This document shows, piece by piece, positions 20,900 to 36,761 of a stretch of DNA of 64,000 bases (within the stretch, counting starts at the first letter, position 1; each line of letters opens with the position of its first letter). The translations under genes and the position numbers were made by a program. The DNA lies in sequence record MT884006.2, one strand, 5' to 3'. The notes below the pieces were generated by a model. It did no database searches. It was not told the origin of the DNA and saw nothing but the letters and a program-made list of their open reading frames with translations. The stretch is from Escherichia phage vb_EcoM_bov9_1.

Positions 20900-21268
20900 T
20901 TAAAAGAATTTAAATTTTTTCTTTGACCTTTTATTAAATGCATCTTGTAGTTGCATTGTAATACATTTTTCTACATGAGGAGCTAACTCAGCTTTTCTTT
21001 CTTGGTCAAGAACAGCAAAGTCCATTACAACCTTTCCATCAACCCAATCCAGTTTAGTTACATACACTATATGTGTAGAACCATCTTCTAGTTTAATGAC
21101 AATCTCCTGGATAACATTTTCCATAGCGGATTTAATTATCTTAAGAGACTCATTAAAAAGACGTTCTTTTCTTTCTTCTTCCCCCTCCGAAGAGGGGGAT
21201 TCATCGATAATTTCTAGATCTAAATCTAAATCTAAATCATCTTTATTCATTAAATTCTTCCATATCAC
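20900..21268 (-). CDS. 40: gp40 head vertex assembly factor
   Basis: 122-aa ORF between 41 and uvsX; true start may be an internal Met because the annotated start overlaps the uvsX 3' end. Confidence 0.55.
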   Translation of the reverse strand: MIWKNLMNKDDLDLDLDLEIIDESPSSEGEEERKERLFNESLKIIKSAMENVIQEIVIKLEDGSTHIVYVTKLDWVDGKVVMDFAVLDQERKAELAPHVEKCITMQLQDAFNKRSKKKFKFF

Positions 21269-22424
21269 TTAACTGTTCGAGGTCAGTTTCTAAATCAGCA
21301 GCTGATTTACTTTTACTTTCTGGAGATTTAAATTTTTCAACCTTTGAGTTAATCAATTCATCAACTTCAGCTTCAACAATTTCATTGCTATCAATAGCAC
21401 CTAACTGATAAGCACGTTTAATAGCATCTCGGAATGGTTGATGCTTAAATAAAGGACCCCAGAATGTAGTGCAGTTGGTATCTTTTGCACGCCAAGATTT
21501 TTCTTCGCGAATCATCTCACCGGTTTCTTCATCAAGAAATTCACGAGCATACCAACCGTTCTTAGGTTTTACCACGAATCCTAATTCTAGAGCCATATCT
21601 AACAATCCAGAATAAGGATCGATACCACCATCAAATTTAACATCAATAAAGAATTTACTTTTTTCTTTAACGGTACGAGATTTTTCTACATTTAGAACAA
21701 ATTGATACCCCTGAAGATCAGAACCATCTTTAATCTGGCGTTTACCGATAATGAATACGGTATCAGCCGAATACATTACGCCTGTACCACCTGTCATCAC
21801 GGTTTTACTAAACATTTCAATTGTTTCAATTGTATGGTTAACCGCAACACATGGAATATTTTTAATGCTAAAATAAGGAGTAACAATACGGAATAATGAC
21901 TTCAGTGATTTAGCACGAGTCATATCTGCCACAGATTTTTCATTCAAGGCATCTTCCGTTTCTTTCTTAGAAGCCATATTACCAATTGAATCGATGAATA
22001 CAATAACCTTTTCACCACGCTCAATAGCTTCAAGCTGATTCACCATATCAATTTTCAGCTGTTCAACTGACTGGATTGGTGTATGAATTACTCGTTCCGG
22101 GTCAACTCCCATGGATCGCAAATAAGCTGGAGTAATACCAAATTCGCTATCATAGAATAGACAAACCGCGTCAGGATATTTGTTCAAATATGCCGCAACC
22201 ATAGTCAAAGACATATTTGATTTAAAGTGTTTAGAAGGCCCTGCGAAAATAGTTAAACCAGACTGCATACCGCCATCAATCGCACCAGAAATAGCAATAT
22301 TAAGCATTGGGATTTTTGTACGAATTACATCCTTTTCATTAAAGAATTTAGATGTAGTCAGTTCAGCAGTCATTTTAGAAGTGGAAGCTTTAATCAAACG
22401 GGATTTTAAATCTGCAATAGACAT
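21243..22424 (-). CDS. uvsX: UvsX recombinase (RecA family)
   Basis: 393-aa ORF; Walker A GPSKHFKS, RecA-like core; sequence recognisably UvsX. Confidence 0.95.
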   Translation of the reverse strand: MSIADLKSRLIKASTSKMTAELTTSKFFNEKDVIRTKIPMLNIAISGAIDGGMQSGLTIFAGPSKHFKSNMSLTMVAAYLNKYPDAVCLFYDSEFGITPAYLRSMGVDPERVIHTPIQSVEQLKIDMVNQLEAIERGEKVIVFIDSIGNMASKKETEDALNEKSVADMTRAKSLKSLFRIVTPYFSIKNIPCVAVNHTIETIEMFSKTVMTGGTGVMYSADTVFIIGKRQIKDGSDLQGYQFVLNVEKSRTVKEKSKFFIDVKFDGGIDPYSGLLDMALELGFVVKPKNGWYAREFLDEETGEMIREEKSWRAKDTNCTTFWGPLFKHQPFRDAIKRAYQLGAIDSNEIVEAEVDELINSKVEKFKSPESKSKSAADLETDLEQLSDMEEFNE

Positions 22425-22501
22425 TCATTTTTTCCATAGGCATCATTATATTTTCCTCACTGGTTAAAGATAGAGTAATTATAACACAATAAATTTAGGC
22501 A

Positions 22502-23350
22502 TTAATCAACTGCTATCGGATGAATAGCATTAAACTTATGAAATGCTTCTGATTTTTCTTTACGAGAAACACACATGCGAAGAACCTTTAATGGCTCGTC
22601 TTCTTCACCCAACGATTTTCGTTTTTCAATATTAGAAGTTTTCCAACGAGCTTGCTCTGGAAACTCTCTATTGATTTGCTCAAGCGCTCTATTATGTTTA
22701 GAATTACTACGAATTGAACTGCACCCGCCAGGAGCTTGTGCTTTTCCAGATACAACCAGATATTTGAACAAGGCCAAATGCGGATAACCTTGATTAATTA
22801 AATTGAGAAATGCATACATATCTTCACATAAATCAATTTTTCCATACCCAATTTGTTCTGTCGTAAGTTTTCCGAGGTCATACCATGTATTCGTGAATCC
22901 ATATGAATTTTCACGATAATTACCCCAAGATGAAGTAATTTTAAAAATAGGTAGACGAGCATGGCCATGATAATACCCACAATCCATGGCATCCTCAACA
23001 TATTGAATCAATTCATAGAACTGTTCACGAGTCAATTGATTGACTTTATCCACACAACGACGATCATCTCTTTTTCGCATTGAACTCATACGAATAGTAG
23101 TATCATCGTCAATCATCCAGATTCGTTGACCTGCATACATGTCAGTAATTGCTTTACGAGTACCGGCAATTCCGTTTACATCATCAGGAATAGTTATAAT
23201 TTTAGCTCTAGACCCATAGGCATCATAATAAGCTTTTTCTTCGTGTTCACGCACTACAATATGTGGTTCATAATCAGTCGGAAACATATCAAGGGCAGAA
23301 ACTGCCCCTACACGTTGATAGCTTGGAATTACGAATTGAATCATTTCCAC
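22502..23350 (-). CDS. putative glycosyltransferase with DxD motif at the beta-gt locus (not T4 beta-gt)
   Basis: 282-aa ORF between uvsX and 42; WMIDDDTTIR motif suggests a GT-A-type sugar transferase; no resemblance to my recollection of T4 beta-glucosyltransferase. Confidence 0.5.
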   Translation of the reverse strand: MEMIQFVIPSYQRVGAVSALDMFPTDYEPHIVVREHEEKAYYDAYGSRAKIITIPDDVNGIAGTRKAITDMYAGQRIWMIDDDTTIRMSSMRKRDDRRCVDKVNQLTREQFYELIQYVEDAMDCGYYHGHARLPIFKITSSWGNYRENSYGFTNTWYDLGKLTTEQIGYGKIDLCEDMYAFLNLINQGYPHLALFKYLVVSGKAQAPGGCSSIRSNSKHNRALEQINREFPEQARWKTSNIEKRKSLGEEDEPLKVLRMCVSRKEKSEAFHKFNAIHPIAVD

Positions 23351-24081
23351 TCACCGTTATAATCTTTTTTCACAATATGAGTTTCGCCAGTATTCCACCA
23401 ATGATCAACCAAGTAAAAATGACGAGAATATACATGAAGACTTCCAACATTCCATATAATAGAACCTGCTTTATACTGACGAGTTGAATCGCCTGCATTC
23501 AAATCAGATACTAATTTATCTAATACGTATTTTTGCCATGCATAATCATTACGGAATCCGAAGACCACGTCATTTGAGCGCATGCTTACTACTGCATTGA
23601 CTTTCTTATCACGAATCAGGTACTGTACTGTATTAGTACACATGAAATCTGACATACCATCTTTATTGTAGTCAAATTGCATGGATGGACGAGTATAAAT
23701 CATGATACCACGTCGAGAATCAGGATTTTGACCAAGTTCAGCTAAACACATATCATACTGAGCATAGTTATCTTCTGACCAGATAGCCCAACCGTAATTC
23801 GAGTTAATTTCACCTTTAGAAGATGCTACTTGTTGCCAAATCTTCGGTGTTTCACCCGGAATATCTTTAACGAACAAGCTCTTAGATTTATACCATTCAA
23901 GTTCACGCTGAATGTATTCATCATTAAGAGCGCCAAAAATAAACGGTTCATCTGCTACAAATGATGCGCCAATAATTTCAATAGTTTTAACACCAGTTTT
24001 ATCAACTACGAAATCTTTTTCTTTTAATGCAAGCCCCAAATGAAGACGGATTTCTTCAACTGTCATAGAGTCACTAATCAT
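23341..24081 (-). CDS. 42: dCMP hydroxymethylase gp42
   Basis: 246-aa ORF; thymidylate-synthase-like fold motifs; size equals T4 gp42. Confidence 0.9.
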   Translation of the reverse strand: MISDSMTVEEIRLHLGLALKEKDFVVDKTGVKTIEIIGASFVADEPFIFGALNDEYIQRELEWYKSKSLFVKDIPGETPKIWQQVASSKGEINSNYGWAIWSEDNYAQYDMCLAELGQNPDSRRGIMIYTRPSMQFDYNKDGMSDFMCTNTVQYLIRDKKVNAVVSMRSNDVVFGFRNDYAWQKYVLDKLVSDLNAGDSTRQYKAGSIIWNVGSLHVYSRHFYLVDHWWNTGETHIVKKDYNGEWK

Positions 24082-24088
24082 TTAAACC

Positions 24089-24238
24089 TCAATTGATACA
24101 TTCATATTTAACTTGTAACAGTAATAAACTCCAACCTAAAATAATAGTTGGAATCATAAGAGGAACCGTTACACTATAGTATATACTTATTATAACCATC
24201 AAGATTAAAAGCAACACTGCTATAATTTTGCTTTTCAT
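24089..24238 (-). CDS. small hydrophobic membrane protein (imm.1-like)
   Basis: 49-aa ORF not in the track (MKSKIIAVLLLILMVIISIYYSV...); start overlaps the imm stop; coordinates hand-derived. Confidence 0.35.
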   Translation of the reverse strand: MKSKIIAVLLLILMVIISIYYSVTVPLMIPTIILGWSLLLLQVKYECIN

Positions 24239-24486
24239 TCTTTCTCTCTGATGATAATTACTTGATTTGGCTGTGCAGACTTTTTGGTTTCACCCGCAAT
24301 TGACCAAATAAATGTAATAAACCAACCAATAATTGACCAGTTAAACAGTAAAGATGTGAAAAAGATTCCTACTGTCGATTTTGACCCACGCATCAAAGCA
24401 ATAAACCATGGAAGCATGTATATAATAATAGCCAACACGCCTGAAACTAAAACCATAAAAATTGAACCTGCTACTAAAGTTTCCAT
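24235..24486 (-). CDS. imm: Imm superinfection immunity membrane protein
   Basis: 83-aa ORF with two hydrophobic helices; size and position after gene 42 match T4 imm. Confidence 0.75.
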   Translation of the reverse strand: METLVAGSIFMVLVSGVLAIIIYMLPWFIALMRGSKSTVGIFFTSLLFNWSIIGWFITFIWSIAGETKKSAQPNQVIIIREKE

Positions 24487-24493
24487 GTTTTCC

Positions 24494-24874
24494 TCACTTA
24501 GTCAAATTTTTTACGCATGAATTATAAGAATTCACTACATACTCCATCGGAGCATTTTTACCGGTACGCCATTGGTAATTATTAGCCCAATTAGCCCAAA
24601 TTTCGGCGCAGTAGTTTTCAATTTTTTCTTCGCGTGTAATTACATCAGAATTACGATATGCTTGAGCAGATTCATCTGGACGAATAGCTTCGTCAAAATT
24701 CGCCTGCATTTGTTCGACTGTTTGCTTTGGAGCTTCTTTATAACACTTGACATTAGGATTATAAAATTTGCTTGAACAGTTTACAATTTTTCCTACATCA
24801 GACTGATTTACTACTGGTCCTTGAGCTACACAGCCAGTAAGACCTAATGCAATAATCAAAATAGCGATTTTCAT
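24494..24874 (-). CDS. predicted lipoprotein
   Basis: 126-aa ORF, signal peptide with lipobox LTGC. Confidence 0.55.
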   Translation of the reverse strand: MKIAILIIALGLTGCVAQGPVVNQSDVGKIVNCSSKFYNPNVKCYKEAPKQTVEQMQANFDEAIRPDESAQAYRNSDVITREEKIENYCAEIWANWANNYQWRTGKNAPMEYVVNSYNSCVKNLTK

Positions 24875-24884
24875 AATAATTTCC

Positions 24885-25133
24885 TCAAATACAAGTAGTA
24901 ATTACTCCAGTAGTGCTTATGCAGGTATTACCCATTTGCACACCTAAAGATCCATTTGTATTCACATGAAGATTATCATCAATTTTAACTGATATTTTAC
25001 CATTAGTGTGAATAACAGTGCTAGATTCAATCACAGGTTGAGTATCATTTTCAACACTAACAAATGGAACTGCTGTTAATGCAACTAAACAAACTGCTAA
25101 GCATCCCATAACAATTTTCATTTTATTCTCCAA
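24885..25133 (-). CDS. predicted secreted or membrane-anchored small protein
   Basis: 82-aa ORF with N-terminal hydrophobic signal; begins MENKMK like two other genes. Confidence 0.5.
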   Translation of the reverse strand: MENKMKIVMGCLAVCLVALTAVPFVSVENDTQPVIESSTVIHTNGKISVKIDDNLHVNTNGSLGVQMGNTCISTTGVITTCI

Positions 25134-25158
25134 ATCTGTATCAGTAGTTGATAGTTGT

Positions 25159-25188
25159 ATAGTACCATGGAAGAACAGTCTTGTAAAC
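25159..25188 (-). promoter_or_regulatory. T4-type early promoter inside a repeated promoter-leader cassette
   Basis: minus-strand GTTTAC-18-TGgTACTAT; cassette also seen near 51108 and 52547. Confidence 0.5.
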
Positions 25189-25270
25189 AGTTTTGTGAAA
25201 AATTTTTTAATGAATCCAAAAGGTCCAGAATCATCTGTTTTTCACAAGTATAGATTTATATTACTTGTAT

Positions 25271-25292
25271 GAAAAAGGGACCCGGAGGTCCC
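25271..25292 (-). terminator. intrinsic terminator hairpin downstream of gene 43
   Basis: gggacc-cgga-ggtccc inverted repeat with flanking A/T tract. Confidence 0.55.
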
Positions 25293-25305
25293 TAGATTTA
25301 TTCTA

Positions 25306-28002
25306 TCAGCCAAACAGGAAGTCTAACGAAGCTTTTTCTTCATAGTCCATACCAGCCGATTCACACATACCCGCAAGCGGTTTAACAAACGATTTTTGGA
25401 ACAAAGTTGAGTAGTCAATCCAAGACAGTACATCAGAACGAATTTCTTTTGGAAGTTCTGTGCCCGACGGCCAAGCAATGCACTTGTCACCAAATGGATT
25501 TCCTTCACGCAATGGAAGAACCATTACCTTATTTCCATCCAAAATTGGAGCTACACCTAAACCGCTAACAGCTCGACGATAAGTTAGCACACCACGAATA
25601 TGGAACGGGCATTTAAATCCTGGCCAACCTTTATCATCATATTTCGCTATATCGTTCGCAGTTTTTACTTCAGCAATAACTTTATAGTCAAGTTGACGAT
25701 ATTCTTTCTCGAAGTTCTTGTAATATTCTTGGACAGACTCTTCACCTTCCTGAAGAATACGACGAATACTTTCTTCGAGAGCTTCTTGCACTGCCTTTGG
25801 TGTTGAACTCTGCTGAGTTTCCATACCCATGATTTTTAGATGCGGTTCAGCAAATCGCTTATCTTCCATATCATAAACGTTCAGAGCATAACGCTTTTTC
25901 GCTTTCCAAAATCCACCAACGCCCTTTGAACCAAGCGGAGGGCAAGAAATAGCTTCACGGTCCATATGCATCAGATGCTCGCGGTTATTCATATAATCAC
26001 ATAACTCACGATATGCAACATCAATCATAGGTTCCATCTTTTTCTTACCGAACTGATTCATGAATTCAACTAAATCGTTCTGCTCTTTGAATCGGTCAAG
26101 ACCAACTTTTTCAATAACTTTATCTACACAAACATATACCGAATCAGTATCACCTGCTGCAATGAAATCTTCACCATTAGTTCCGCATACTTTATTCAGA
26201 TATTCATTAATTTTACGAGCAATCCACTGAATACCAACTTGGCCGAAAATTGTGATAGCAGTAGCATTTCGCAAATCATAGTAACGGAAATGAATATTAC
26301 CAAGAGCACCATAAAGACTGTTAATAAGAATTTTACGGTTCAGCTGATTTGTGTTAGCAAGTGTAGCCGCTTTTTCGCATTCCTCAATCAGACTATTGAG
26401 AACAGATTCAGTATAATTCGATAGTTCATTTAAGAAATCATCACTGAACTTAACATATCGTTCAACTTCTGGTTTAGTTGAACAGGACCCTGCGCCTTTC
26501 ATAATAATCTTTTTAATAGCTTCGGCATTCATTTCTTCAGCGAACATTTTCTTTTTCCAATCTTTACGCTGGAAAAATACTTTAGCGATTTCCTTTGGAA
26601 TGATACCTTCTTGATGCTTATCATACATCCATCCATTCGGAGAACAAGAATATTCATCACTCGGTTTAGGAGCTGTTCCTGCGATATATTCATGAATTGG
26701 ATGAACTTTAAACTGCCCACGAATAGTCTCAGGACTAATGTTAACCTGACGAATAATGCTCGGATACAGAGACGTCAAGTCAAAACTCATAATATATCGA
26801 CGAGCAATTGGTTTAGGTTCAAATACAAATGCACCCGGAAAACTTTGTTTAACGTGCGAACCTTGTTGAGGAATAACCTTGTGTTCACCTTTCAATGAGT
26901 TAAAAATAATAGCATCCCAAGTTTTAATAGGACTCATTACACCAGAAAAAGGCATTTTAGCGTAATAAGACATACTTAAAACTAGATCGATAAACCCGCG
27001 AATTTTATCAATTGCTTGAACTGATTCTACGTCAATGATGTTATAACTAATGTATCGTTGATGATTAGTCTCACGAAGTTTATTAATAGGACCGTCGTAT
27101 GGTAATTTACCTTTTTTGGTTTCATGTTGAGCAACTGATTCCAAAGAGAATGACGGCAAATTAGTAAAAGCGAATTTCTTGTACAAATCTAAATAATCAA
27201 GAATAGATACGCCATCAATAGAATAAATTTCTTTGCTACCGTACATATTTTGAATTAGTTTAGATTTTACTCGACCGATTGGAGAGAAGCGTTTCATACT
27301 GCGTTCACCTAGAATCATTTTAACACGATTCATGATATACGGAACGTCAAACCCCTCAATATTCCAACCAGTAAAAATAGCAGGTCGTTTCTGTTCCCAG
27401 AGATTAATATATTCCATGAGCATATCACGCTCATTATCGAATGGCATATAAATTACTCGGTCAAGAATTTCTTGAGGAACTTCATCACCACCTTCACAGT
27501 CAAGCTTAGCAGCTAACTTTGCATCCCATTTTGATACTGAACCGTACATTGAATTCAAAAGGTCGAAAACATAAAAACGGTCATCAATTGAATCGTAATG
27601 AGTGATAGCATCAATTTCATATTCAGCTTTCATTGGGTCAGGAAATTTATCACCAGTAACCTCAATGTCACAGTTAGCTACACGAACAAATTTTCGGTCA
27701 TAAACAATTTCTGAACCATACGTATCACTGATATAAGCGAGTTTAAAATCGTTCATACCGAGAGCTTCGAGACCGATGTCTTCCATTCGCTTCATCCAAT
27801 CTCGAGCATCTTTCATTGATGGAAATTTTTGAGGAGCGCAATTTTTACCATAAATGTCTTTGTATTTTGACTCTTCCTTACAATGCCTAAACATAGTCGG
27901 AAGATATTCTACTTCACGAGTACGTTCCTTTCCGTTTTCATCAATATAACGTTCAACAATGTTATTTCCGACTGTTTCAATAGAGATATAAAATTCTTTC
28001 AT
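25306..28002 (-). CDS. 43: DNA polymerase gp43 (family B, with 3'-5' exonuclease)
   Basis: 898-aa ORF; exo motifs and polymerase motifs (SLYPSII, AAGDTDS-like); length equals T4 gp43. Confidence 0.97.
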   Translation of the reverse strand: MKEFYISIETVGNNIVERYIDENGKERTREVEYLPTMFRHCKEESKYKDIYGKNCAPQKFPSMKDARDWMKRMEDIGLEALGMNDFKLAYISDTYGSEIVYDRKFVRVANCDIEVTGDKFPDPMKAEYEIDAITHYDSIDDRFYVFDLLNSMYGSVSKWDAKLAAKLDCEGGDEVPQEILDRVIYMPFDNERDMLMEYINLWEQKRPAIFTGWNIEGFDVPYIMNRVKMILGERSMKRFSPIGRVKSKLIQNMYGSKEIYSIDGVSILDYLDLYKKFAFTNLPSFSLESVAQHETKKGKLPYDGPINKLRETNHQRYISYNIIDVESVQAIDKIRGFIDLVLSMSYYAKMPFSGVMSPIKTWDAIIFNSLKGEHKVIPQQGSHVKQSFPGAFVFEPKPIARRYIMSFDLTSLYPSIIRQVNISPETIRGQFKVHPIHEYIAGTAPKPSDEYSCSPNGWMYDKHQEGIIPKEIAKVFFQRKDWKKKMFAEEMNAEAIKKIIMKGAGSCSTKPEVERYVKFSDDFLNELSNYTESVLNSLIEECEKAATLANTNQLNRKILINSLYGALGNIHFRYYDLRNATAITIFGQVGIQWIARKINEYLNKVCGTNGEDFIAAGDTDSVYVCVDKVIEKVGLDRFKEQNDLVEFMNQFGKKKMEPMIDVAYRELCDYMNNREHLMHMDREAISCPPLGSKGVGGFWKAKKRYALNVYDMEDKRFAEPHLKIMGMETQQSSTPKAVQEALEESIRRILQEGEESVQEYYKNFEKEYRQLDYKVIAEVKTANDIAKYDDKGWPGFKCPFHIRGVLTYRRAVSGLGVAPILDGNKVMVLPLREGNPFGDKCIAWPSGTELPKEIRSDVLSWIDYSTLFQKSFVKPLAGMCESAGMDYEEKASLDFLFG

Positions 28003-35542: not shown

Positions 35543-35561
35543 AAAGGGCCGAAGCCCTTTA
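35543..35561 (-). terminator. hairpin with UUCG loop at the a-gt stop
   Basis: aaagggc-cgaa-gcccttt. Confidence 0.5.
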
Positions 35562-36761
35562 TTTTGTAATAATGTCAAACTGTTCTTTAAAGCAGAAGCT
35601 TGAATCTTGATGCTGATACAAAAATTCATACGCTTTTTCTCGCTCACGGTCATAAAGAGCTCGGTCAGATGACAGTTCTTTAATACGTTCAAACGTTGAT
35701 TCCATATCATTTTCATCAAACCAAACGATACCGCTATCATGCGAGGTCAAAGGAGTATTATCAACACGGAATTTTAAATTTTCGCCAGTAGATTTCCAGA
35801 AAACAGGAATTGTTCCACATGCACCAAGCTCGAGATGAGTATATTCTAAAGAACGTTGTAGATATTTTTTATCCAACTTACTCAACTGATAACCAAAACC
35901 GGATTTACTCATACGTTCAAGCATTTCGCTATTTACATAACGGTCAAGAATTTGCGTTGGCAAATTAGGAGCAATTTTAATTTGGTCTACTTGATGAAGA
36001 CGATAATACTCGTATGGAATTCCTTTTTCTTTAATAGGAATGAACGCTGGAGAACGTTCCAGACCTTCCATAATAGTACTTAGTCCTGCAGGTTTAAGAT
36101 GTTTTTCATGAAAATCAAACATCTGATAAAAACCTTTCCATGTAGTCGTACGACCAATCCAACGGTTGATATTCATGTTAATTTCAGAAACATCTTTCCA
36201 GTAGGTTGACCGAACCTTCGCAATATCCATAGGAGGCTGAAAGTTATATACCGTCGGTGCTTCTTCAATATCATCAAACAGAGAAACAGTTTCTGGATAC
36301 CACTCTTTCATCAGAACTTTATTAAAATCACCATTATCAGAATGGCTAAAAATAACATCAGCTCGACGAACAGTTTCTTCTAATCCCAAATTTCGACGCA
36401 AAGAAAGAGAAGAATGGTCATGTTGATAAACTACAACACGAACAGAAGGTTTAATGTTATCAATAATTTTTTTATAGTTATTAATAGTGTCTTCTTCAAC
36501 TGAAGTAGCAGGAACTGAATTGATAATTAGAATATCACAATCATTTACCAGCTTAAGTGTTTTATCGTATTCTTTTGCCAATAAAACCGGAATTGAAAAT
36601 GATTTATAATCATGTGCACAGTTACGTGTAAATGATTTATCTTTAGCATAAACCAAAGTTACTTCATGACCATTTTTAATAAACCAATCACGTTGCTCAA
36701 GAGAAAATTTAGTTACACCACAACCTTCAAGACCTCGAGCCATAAAAATACATACTTTCAT
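35559..36761 (-). CDS. a-gt: DNA alpha-glucosyltransferase
   Basis: 400-aa ORF; N-terminus CIFMARGLEGCGVTKFSLEQRDWFIKNGHEVTLVYAKDKSF recognisable as T4 AGT; size identical. Confidence 0.9.
   Translation of the reverse strand: MKVCIFMARGLEGCGVTKFSLEQRDWFIKNGHEVTLVYAKDKSFTRNCAHDYKSFSIPVLLAKEYDKTLKLVNDCDILIINSVPATSVEEDTINNYKKIIDNIKPSVRVVVYQHDHSSLSLRRNLGLEETVRRADVIFSHSDNGDFNKVLMKEWYPETVSLFDDIEEAPTVYNFQPPMDIAKVRSTYWKDVSEINMNINRWIGRTTTWKGFYQMFDFHEKHLKPAGLSTIMEGLERSPAFIPIKEKGIPYEYYRLHQVDQIKIAPNLPTQILDRYVNSEMLERMSKSGFGYQLSKLDKKYLQRSLEYTHLELGACGTIPVFWKSTGENLKFRVDNTPLTSHDSGIVWFDENDMESTFERIKELSSDRALYDREREKAYEFLYQHQDSSFCFKEQFDIITK

Follow-up and report, generated by a model that had tools for sequence, protein, structure and literature searches.

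A very probable T2/T6-type beta-glucosyl-HMC-alpha-glucosyltransferase gene between uvsX and gene 42 of an Escherichia phage

In phage T4, the position next to gene 42 is occupied by beta-gt. In the DNA analyzed here (the window, the whole stretch of 64,000 nucleotides), this position holds an open reading frame that an earlier note, written from the sequence, had taken for a different glycosyltransferase. The question is therefore what this ORF encodes and which sugar its product would place on the hydroxymethylcytosine (hmC) of the phage. The window corresponds to bases 1-64000 of Escherichia phage vb_EcoM_bov10K1 (MT884007.2, Tequatrovirus), with the same coordinates and 100% identity, and the 166,364-bp genome of that phage was used for the whole-genome searches.

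Gene call and neighboring features

An ORF bearing the motif WMIDDDTTIR was present between uvsX (21243..22424) and gene 42, as the earlier note had described. The ORF list gives it as 22502..23350 (-), 282 aa counted from a GTG. An ATG at 23344 yields a ggt gene of 22502..23344 (-) and 280 aa, to which the GTG at 23350 adds 2 aa. The 280-aa form is the one annotated in MT884007.2, T2, Solly, and RB33. Since all annotated orthologues start at this ATG, and since it and the gene 42 stop overlap as ATGA, we consider it the more likely start, and the GTG was set aside. In the 280-aa numbering, WMIDDDTTIR comprises residues 76-85 (23090..23119). Within it, sequence and alignment locate the DDD of residues 79-81 (23102..23110, -), the DxD metal and nucleotide-sugar binding motif of the GT-A fold. 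The ATGA overlap lies at 23341..23344 (-), where the sequence reads ...GAG TGG AAA TGA TTC. It is also annotated in T2, Solly, and RB33, and suggests that translation of gene 42 and ggt may be coupled. The coding status of the ORF is not in doubt: tblastn found a match in 688 phage records, and D79, D80, and D81 are invariant in homologues down to 32% identity. On the plus strand across 22502..23350, the ORF list holds only unsupported ORFs of 40-78 aa.

Two further genes of the modification pathway were recognized in the window. Gene 42 (23341..24081, -) encodes dCMP hydroxymethylase, the source of the hmC precursor, and is annotated with this function in T2; its product is 97% identical to T4 gp42 over 245 aa. 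The gene at 35559..36761 (-), which the earlier note had rightly called T4-like, is a T4-type alpha-gt (E = 7.7e-258 to PDB 1xv5, DNA alpha-glucosyltransferase); its product makes the alpha-glucosyl-hmC that serves ggt as acceptor. In the blastn comparison, DNA homology to T4 stops at 22412 on the uvsX side and restarts at 23359, close to where gene 42 ends. The cassette between these breakpoints (22413..23358, 946 bp) has no DNA homology to T4 and replaces segA and beta-gt, which together occupy positions 23556..25496 (1,941 bp) of the T4 record. Between uvsX and ggt there is a 77-bp spacer (22425..22501) without the homing-endonuclease gene segA, as is also the case in T2 and T6.

Promoters and terminators were scanned over 22300..24300; the counts were near the shuffled expectation, and one stem-loop was noted. 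This G+C-rich stem-loop of 9 bp, with a GGGGCAG-TTT-CTGCCC core, lies at 23290..23310 (-), in ggt codons 12-18, just past the end of gene 42. T2 and T6 both have it, fully conserved, and its T-tract is weak. In the record of phage DalCa, a feature labelled 'terminator' falls inside the first 60 nt of ggt. By its sequence, the stem-loop might reduce the read-through that reaches ggt from gene 42. Between imm and gene 42, a strongly hydrophobic ORF of 49 aa (24089..24238, -) is unannotated in MT884007.2; it matches an RB33 CDS noted '42.1', a likeness by size and position alone.

Identity and fold of the gene product

The earlier note had found the ORF unlike T4 beta-gt, and this was borne out. 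No similarity to T4 beta-gt was detectable by BLASTP (best E = 2.2 over 8 residues), the ORF did not align to beta-gt over its length, and neither a GT-B nor a beta-gt structure was among the matches listed, which ruled it out as a homologue of T4 beta-gt. A tblastn search of the 166,364-bp genome for a beta-gt homologue gave none (best E = 3.6), and the same genome was found to contain a single ggt and a single alpha-gt. The product was matched by PHROG 842, 'beta-glucosyl-HMC-alpha-glucosyltransferase', over residues 2-277 with an E value of 2.2e-89. It also matched the Pfam family PF20691 (TAGT, TET-associated glycosyltransferase) at 38.9 bits against a gathering cut-off of 27.5, with residues 5-209 aligned to positions 2-205 of the 205 in the profile.

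The comparison with the T2/T6 beta-alpha-glucosyltransferases, which the earlier note had proposed, gave identity at 278 of 280 residues with T2 ggt and of about 99% with the T6 protein (NC_054907). The Solly protein was identical at all 280 residues, and the alpha-gt of Solly at 399 of 400. The gene order gene 42 - ggt - uvsX is common to the window phage, T2, and T6. Full-length orthology, position, and the presence of alpha-gt and gp42 without beta-gt place the ORF with ggt of T2 and T6. [quoted passage not shown]

When the PDB was searched by sequence with the ORF, no significant hit to a solved structure emerged, the best match being an unrelated protein (E = 1.6). Because no solved relative was detectable by sequence, the fold was judged on a predicted model. 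The AlphaFold2 model, built from a nine-sequence alignment, had a mean pLDDT of 72.5 and a pTM of 0.73; its N-terminal half was good, four segments fell below pLDDT 50, and the C-terminal half was poorly modelled. The model resembles GT-A/GT2 glycosyltransferases, and R11, D79, D80, and D81 do not vary in the family alignment of nine sequences, down to 32% identity. The model thus points to a transferase of GT-A fold, in agreement with the GT-A-type motif recognized in the earlier note, with a single predicted Rossmann-like nucleotide-sugar-binding domain and the DxD at the end of a beta-strand. A GT-A fold has also been reported for the T6 enzyme in a published model (PMC13216743).

Collectively, it is nearly certain that the ORF is the T2/T6-type beta-glucosyl-HMC-alpha-glucosyltransferase gene (ggt, ba-gt, TAGT), whose product would add a second glucose to alpha-glucosylated DNA in the pathway proposed below. 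In this analysis, the assignment is based on the identity and synteny of the gene, its fold class, the lack of a beta-gt in the genome, and the identity of the product with proteins of phages whose DNA has been characterised chemically.

Expected DNA modification and alternative readings

For T2 and T6 the pathway is established: gp42 provides hm-dCMP, alpha-gt acts next, and a beta-1,6 glucose is then added to give gentiobiosyl-hmC (PMC6024577; PMC13216743). The same course is proposed for the window phage. Its gp42 would make 5-hydroxymethyl-dCMP, to be built into phage DNA; the T4-like alpha-gt would use UDP-glucose to attach an alpha-linked glucose to hmC; and the ggt product, with its predicted GT-A fold and presumed dependence on the DxD motif, would put a second glucose, beta-1,6, on the alpha-glucose, resulting in alpha-gentiobiosyl-hmC. 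Given that the genome is without beta-gt, no beta-glucosyl-hmC is expected.

At this base, HPLC/MS analysis of Solly DNA gave alpha-gentiobiosyl-mdC for about 2/3 and 5-hmdC for about 1/3; alpha-glc-mdC was low, and the beta form was absent (PMC13390438). Because the ggt protein and alpha-gt of the window phage are identical to those of Solly at 280/280 and 399/400 residues, the same composition is predicted: by analogy, the virion DNA is expected to be T6/Solly-like, with about 2/3 gentiobiosyl-hmC, about 1/3 bare hmC, and a trace of alpha-glucosyl-hmC. How far di-glucosylation proceeds is not settled by near-identity alone: T2, with a 99%-identical gene, has only about 5% gentiobiosyl-hmC (PMC6024577); yet the window allele is that of Solly, not that of T2. 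Deletion of the gene in T6 (delta-ba-gt or delta-g-gt) abolishes gentiobiosyl-hmC and leaves about 75% alpha-glucosyl-hmC (PMC11078745; bioRxiv 2026.02.25.707755). T6 without ba-gt/g-gt shows greater sensitivity to the Brig1 glycosylase, and BapA becomes able to act on its DNA (PMC11078745; bioRxiv 2026.02.25.707755). The altered sensitivity to modification-dependent systems anticipated in the earlier note is thus documented for T6 against T6 delta-ba-gt.

Since ggt occupies the position of T4 beta-gt, and several GenBank records label it 'beta-glucosyltransferase', it might be regarded as a non-homologous functional replacement of T4 beta-gt that beta-glucosylates bare hmC directly. Some TAGT homologues in the published surveys have no alpha- or beta-GT partner, which points to other acceptors in the wider family. 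However, Solly, with the identical protein, shows no detectable beta-glucosyl-hmC and retains about 1/3 bare hmC. Moreover, T6 without the gene keeps about 75% alpha-glucosyl-hmC, and therefore the enzyme acts on alpha-glucosylated sites; direct glucosylation of bare hmC is accordingly held to be highly improbable. The GT-A fold alone does not specify the donor sugar, and the product could in principle transfer another one, such as the arabinose used by RB69 and other Mosigvirus phages. The chance of this appears negligible: similarity to RB69 ORF003c is absent (the best BLASTP E value being that given above), gentiobiose is what has been measured in phages that carry the identical protein, and gp42 shows 97% identity to the dCMP hydroxymethylase of T4, whereas Mosigvirus phages have a 5-hydroxy-dCMP synthase and an arabinose-precursor gene cluster (PMC13390438).

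A T2/T6-type enzyme might also be present as an inactive or weakly active allele, leaving the DNA mainly mono-alpha-glucosylated as in T2. T2 itself, whose gene is 99% identical, reaches only about 5% gentiobiosyl-hmC, and public T6 records indicate that lesions in ggt arise in laboratory stocks. Against this, the ggt reading frame of the window is intact, and all family-invariant residues are kept, including R11 and D79-D81. The T2-specific changes R11H and P251S are absent, and the protein is identical residue for residue to that of Solly, a high-gentiobiosyl phage. A defective allele is thus very unlikely, and an active T2/T6-type ggt that forms alpha-gentiobiosyl-hmC is the reading we prefer.

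The records of T2 and T6 themselves differ at several ggt positions. In T2 (MH751506.1, 3007-3066), residue 11 is His, as opposed to Arg in the window (codon 11, 23312..23314), Solly, T6, and RB33; in the nine-sequence family alignment, Arg11 occurs without exception, down to 32% identity. T2 also carries P251S, and its exact 5' haplotype of 60 nt was found in 8 records, all of them T2 or SV76. From the sequence comparison, it is conceivable, if rather doubtful, that R11H in the N-terminal IPSYQR loop causes the classical difference between about 5% gentiobiosyl-hmC in T2 and about 2/3 in phages of the T6/Solly type; if so, the allele in the window would represent the wild type, with full activity. 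In T6 records AP018814.1 / NC_054907.1 (901-1740), one GAT has been lost in-frame from GAT GAT GAT, which shortens DDD to DD and the product to 279 aa. The protein YP_010067197.1, from NC_054907.1 with this DD allele, was the TAGT query of a published survey (PMC13216743). Another T6 record, MH550421.1 (3138-3980, -), has a TAG amber at ggt codon 10, and its annotated product comprises 261 aa from Met20. The 60-nt haplotype around codon 10 is unique to that record in the phage collection, and the amber arose either by mutation in the stock or by an error in sequencing.

Distribution and relation to known systems

The activity of this enzyme has been known since early T-even biochemistry, and the T2 and T6 genes were reportedly first cloned by Winkler and Rueger in 1993. 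The gene and its activity are thus already known, and nothing in the window's gene is new; the GT-A fold, the distribution, and the role in evading Brig1 and BapA have all been published recently and carry little weight as discovery. In the phage collection, 474 records have at least 90% DNA identity to ggt. The 688 phage records matched by tblastn include relatives of about 65% identity in Klebsiella, Enterobacter, and Salmonella phages and of about 48% in Serratia phages, and many of the matching records name the gene explicitly.

According to the published survey, most phages with these enzymes have alpha-GT or beta-GT together with TAGT, and alpha-GT and beta-GT occur together in only 6 of 753 genomes, those of T4 and its close relatives (PMC13216743). 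The combination of alpha-GT and TAGT is the usual Tequatrovirus arrangement, and T4, with alpha and beta, is the exception (PMC13216743). The earlier note was right that the T4 beta-gt position is held by another enzyme. Its framing of this as a departure did not hold, alpha-GT with TAGT being common and T4 beta-gt rare (PMC13216743); the locus looks like one 'occupied by a different enzyme' because T4 is the textbook reference, not because the phage is unusual.

The practical value lies in annotation and prediction. In MT884007.2, ggt is annotated as 'glucosyltransferase' and gene 42, the dCMP hydroxymethylase gene, as 'hypothetical protein'. Many other records give ggt as 'hypothetical protein' or, wrongly, as 'beta-glucosyltransferase', and RefSeq often labels gp42 'thymidylate synthase'. 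For this phage, T6-like DNA that carries gentiobiosyl-hmC and about 1/3 bare hmC is predicted with good confidence. Such DNA is predicted to be relatively resistant to alpha-glucosyl-hmC-specific glycosylases, sensitive to GmrSD-family type IV enzymes, and possibly sensitive to 5hmC-directed defences.

Among the known systems, the arabinosyltransferases of RB69 and other Mosigvirus phages are likewise phage glycosyltransferases that build mono- or di-saccharide adducts on modified cytosine, but they share no sequence similarity with the ggt product and differ in sugar, base precursor (5-hydroxy-dC), and genomic location. Cellular GT-A enzymes of the GT2 family (TarP, TarS, SpsA, and the catalytic domains of cellulose and hyaluronan synthases) have only 6-16% sequence identity to the ggt product, and their acceptor is a lipid, teichoic acid, or glycan, whereas that of ggt is a sugar on duplex DNA. 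T4 beta-gt has a GT-B fold (CAZy GT63, PDB 1JG7; PMC13216743). It resembles ggt in its chromosomal position next to gene 42 and as a UDP-glucose-dependent, DNA-modifying glucosyltransferase that forms a beta linkage. The two differ in sequence, without any similarity, in fold (GT-B as against the predicted GT-A of ggt), and in acceptor, which is bare hmC for beta-gt and alpha-glucosyl-hmC for ggt; in addition, the T4 cassette holds the homing endonuclease gene segA. With ggt of T2 and T6, nothing of substance differs. Compared with T2, the window protein has R11 and P251, the consensus state, and compared with the T6 records it has Y40, D55, and R106 and is free of the lesions found there. It is the same gene, in the same position, with the same partner alpha-gt and the same predicted GT-A fold.
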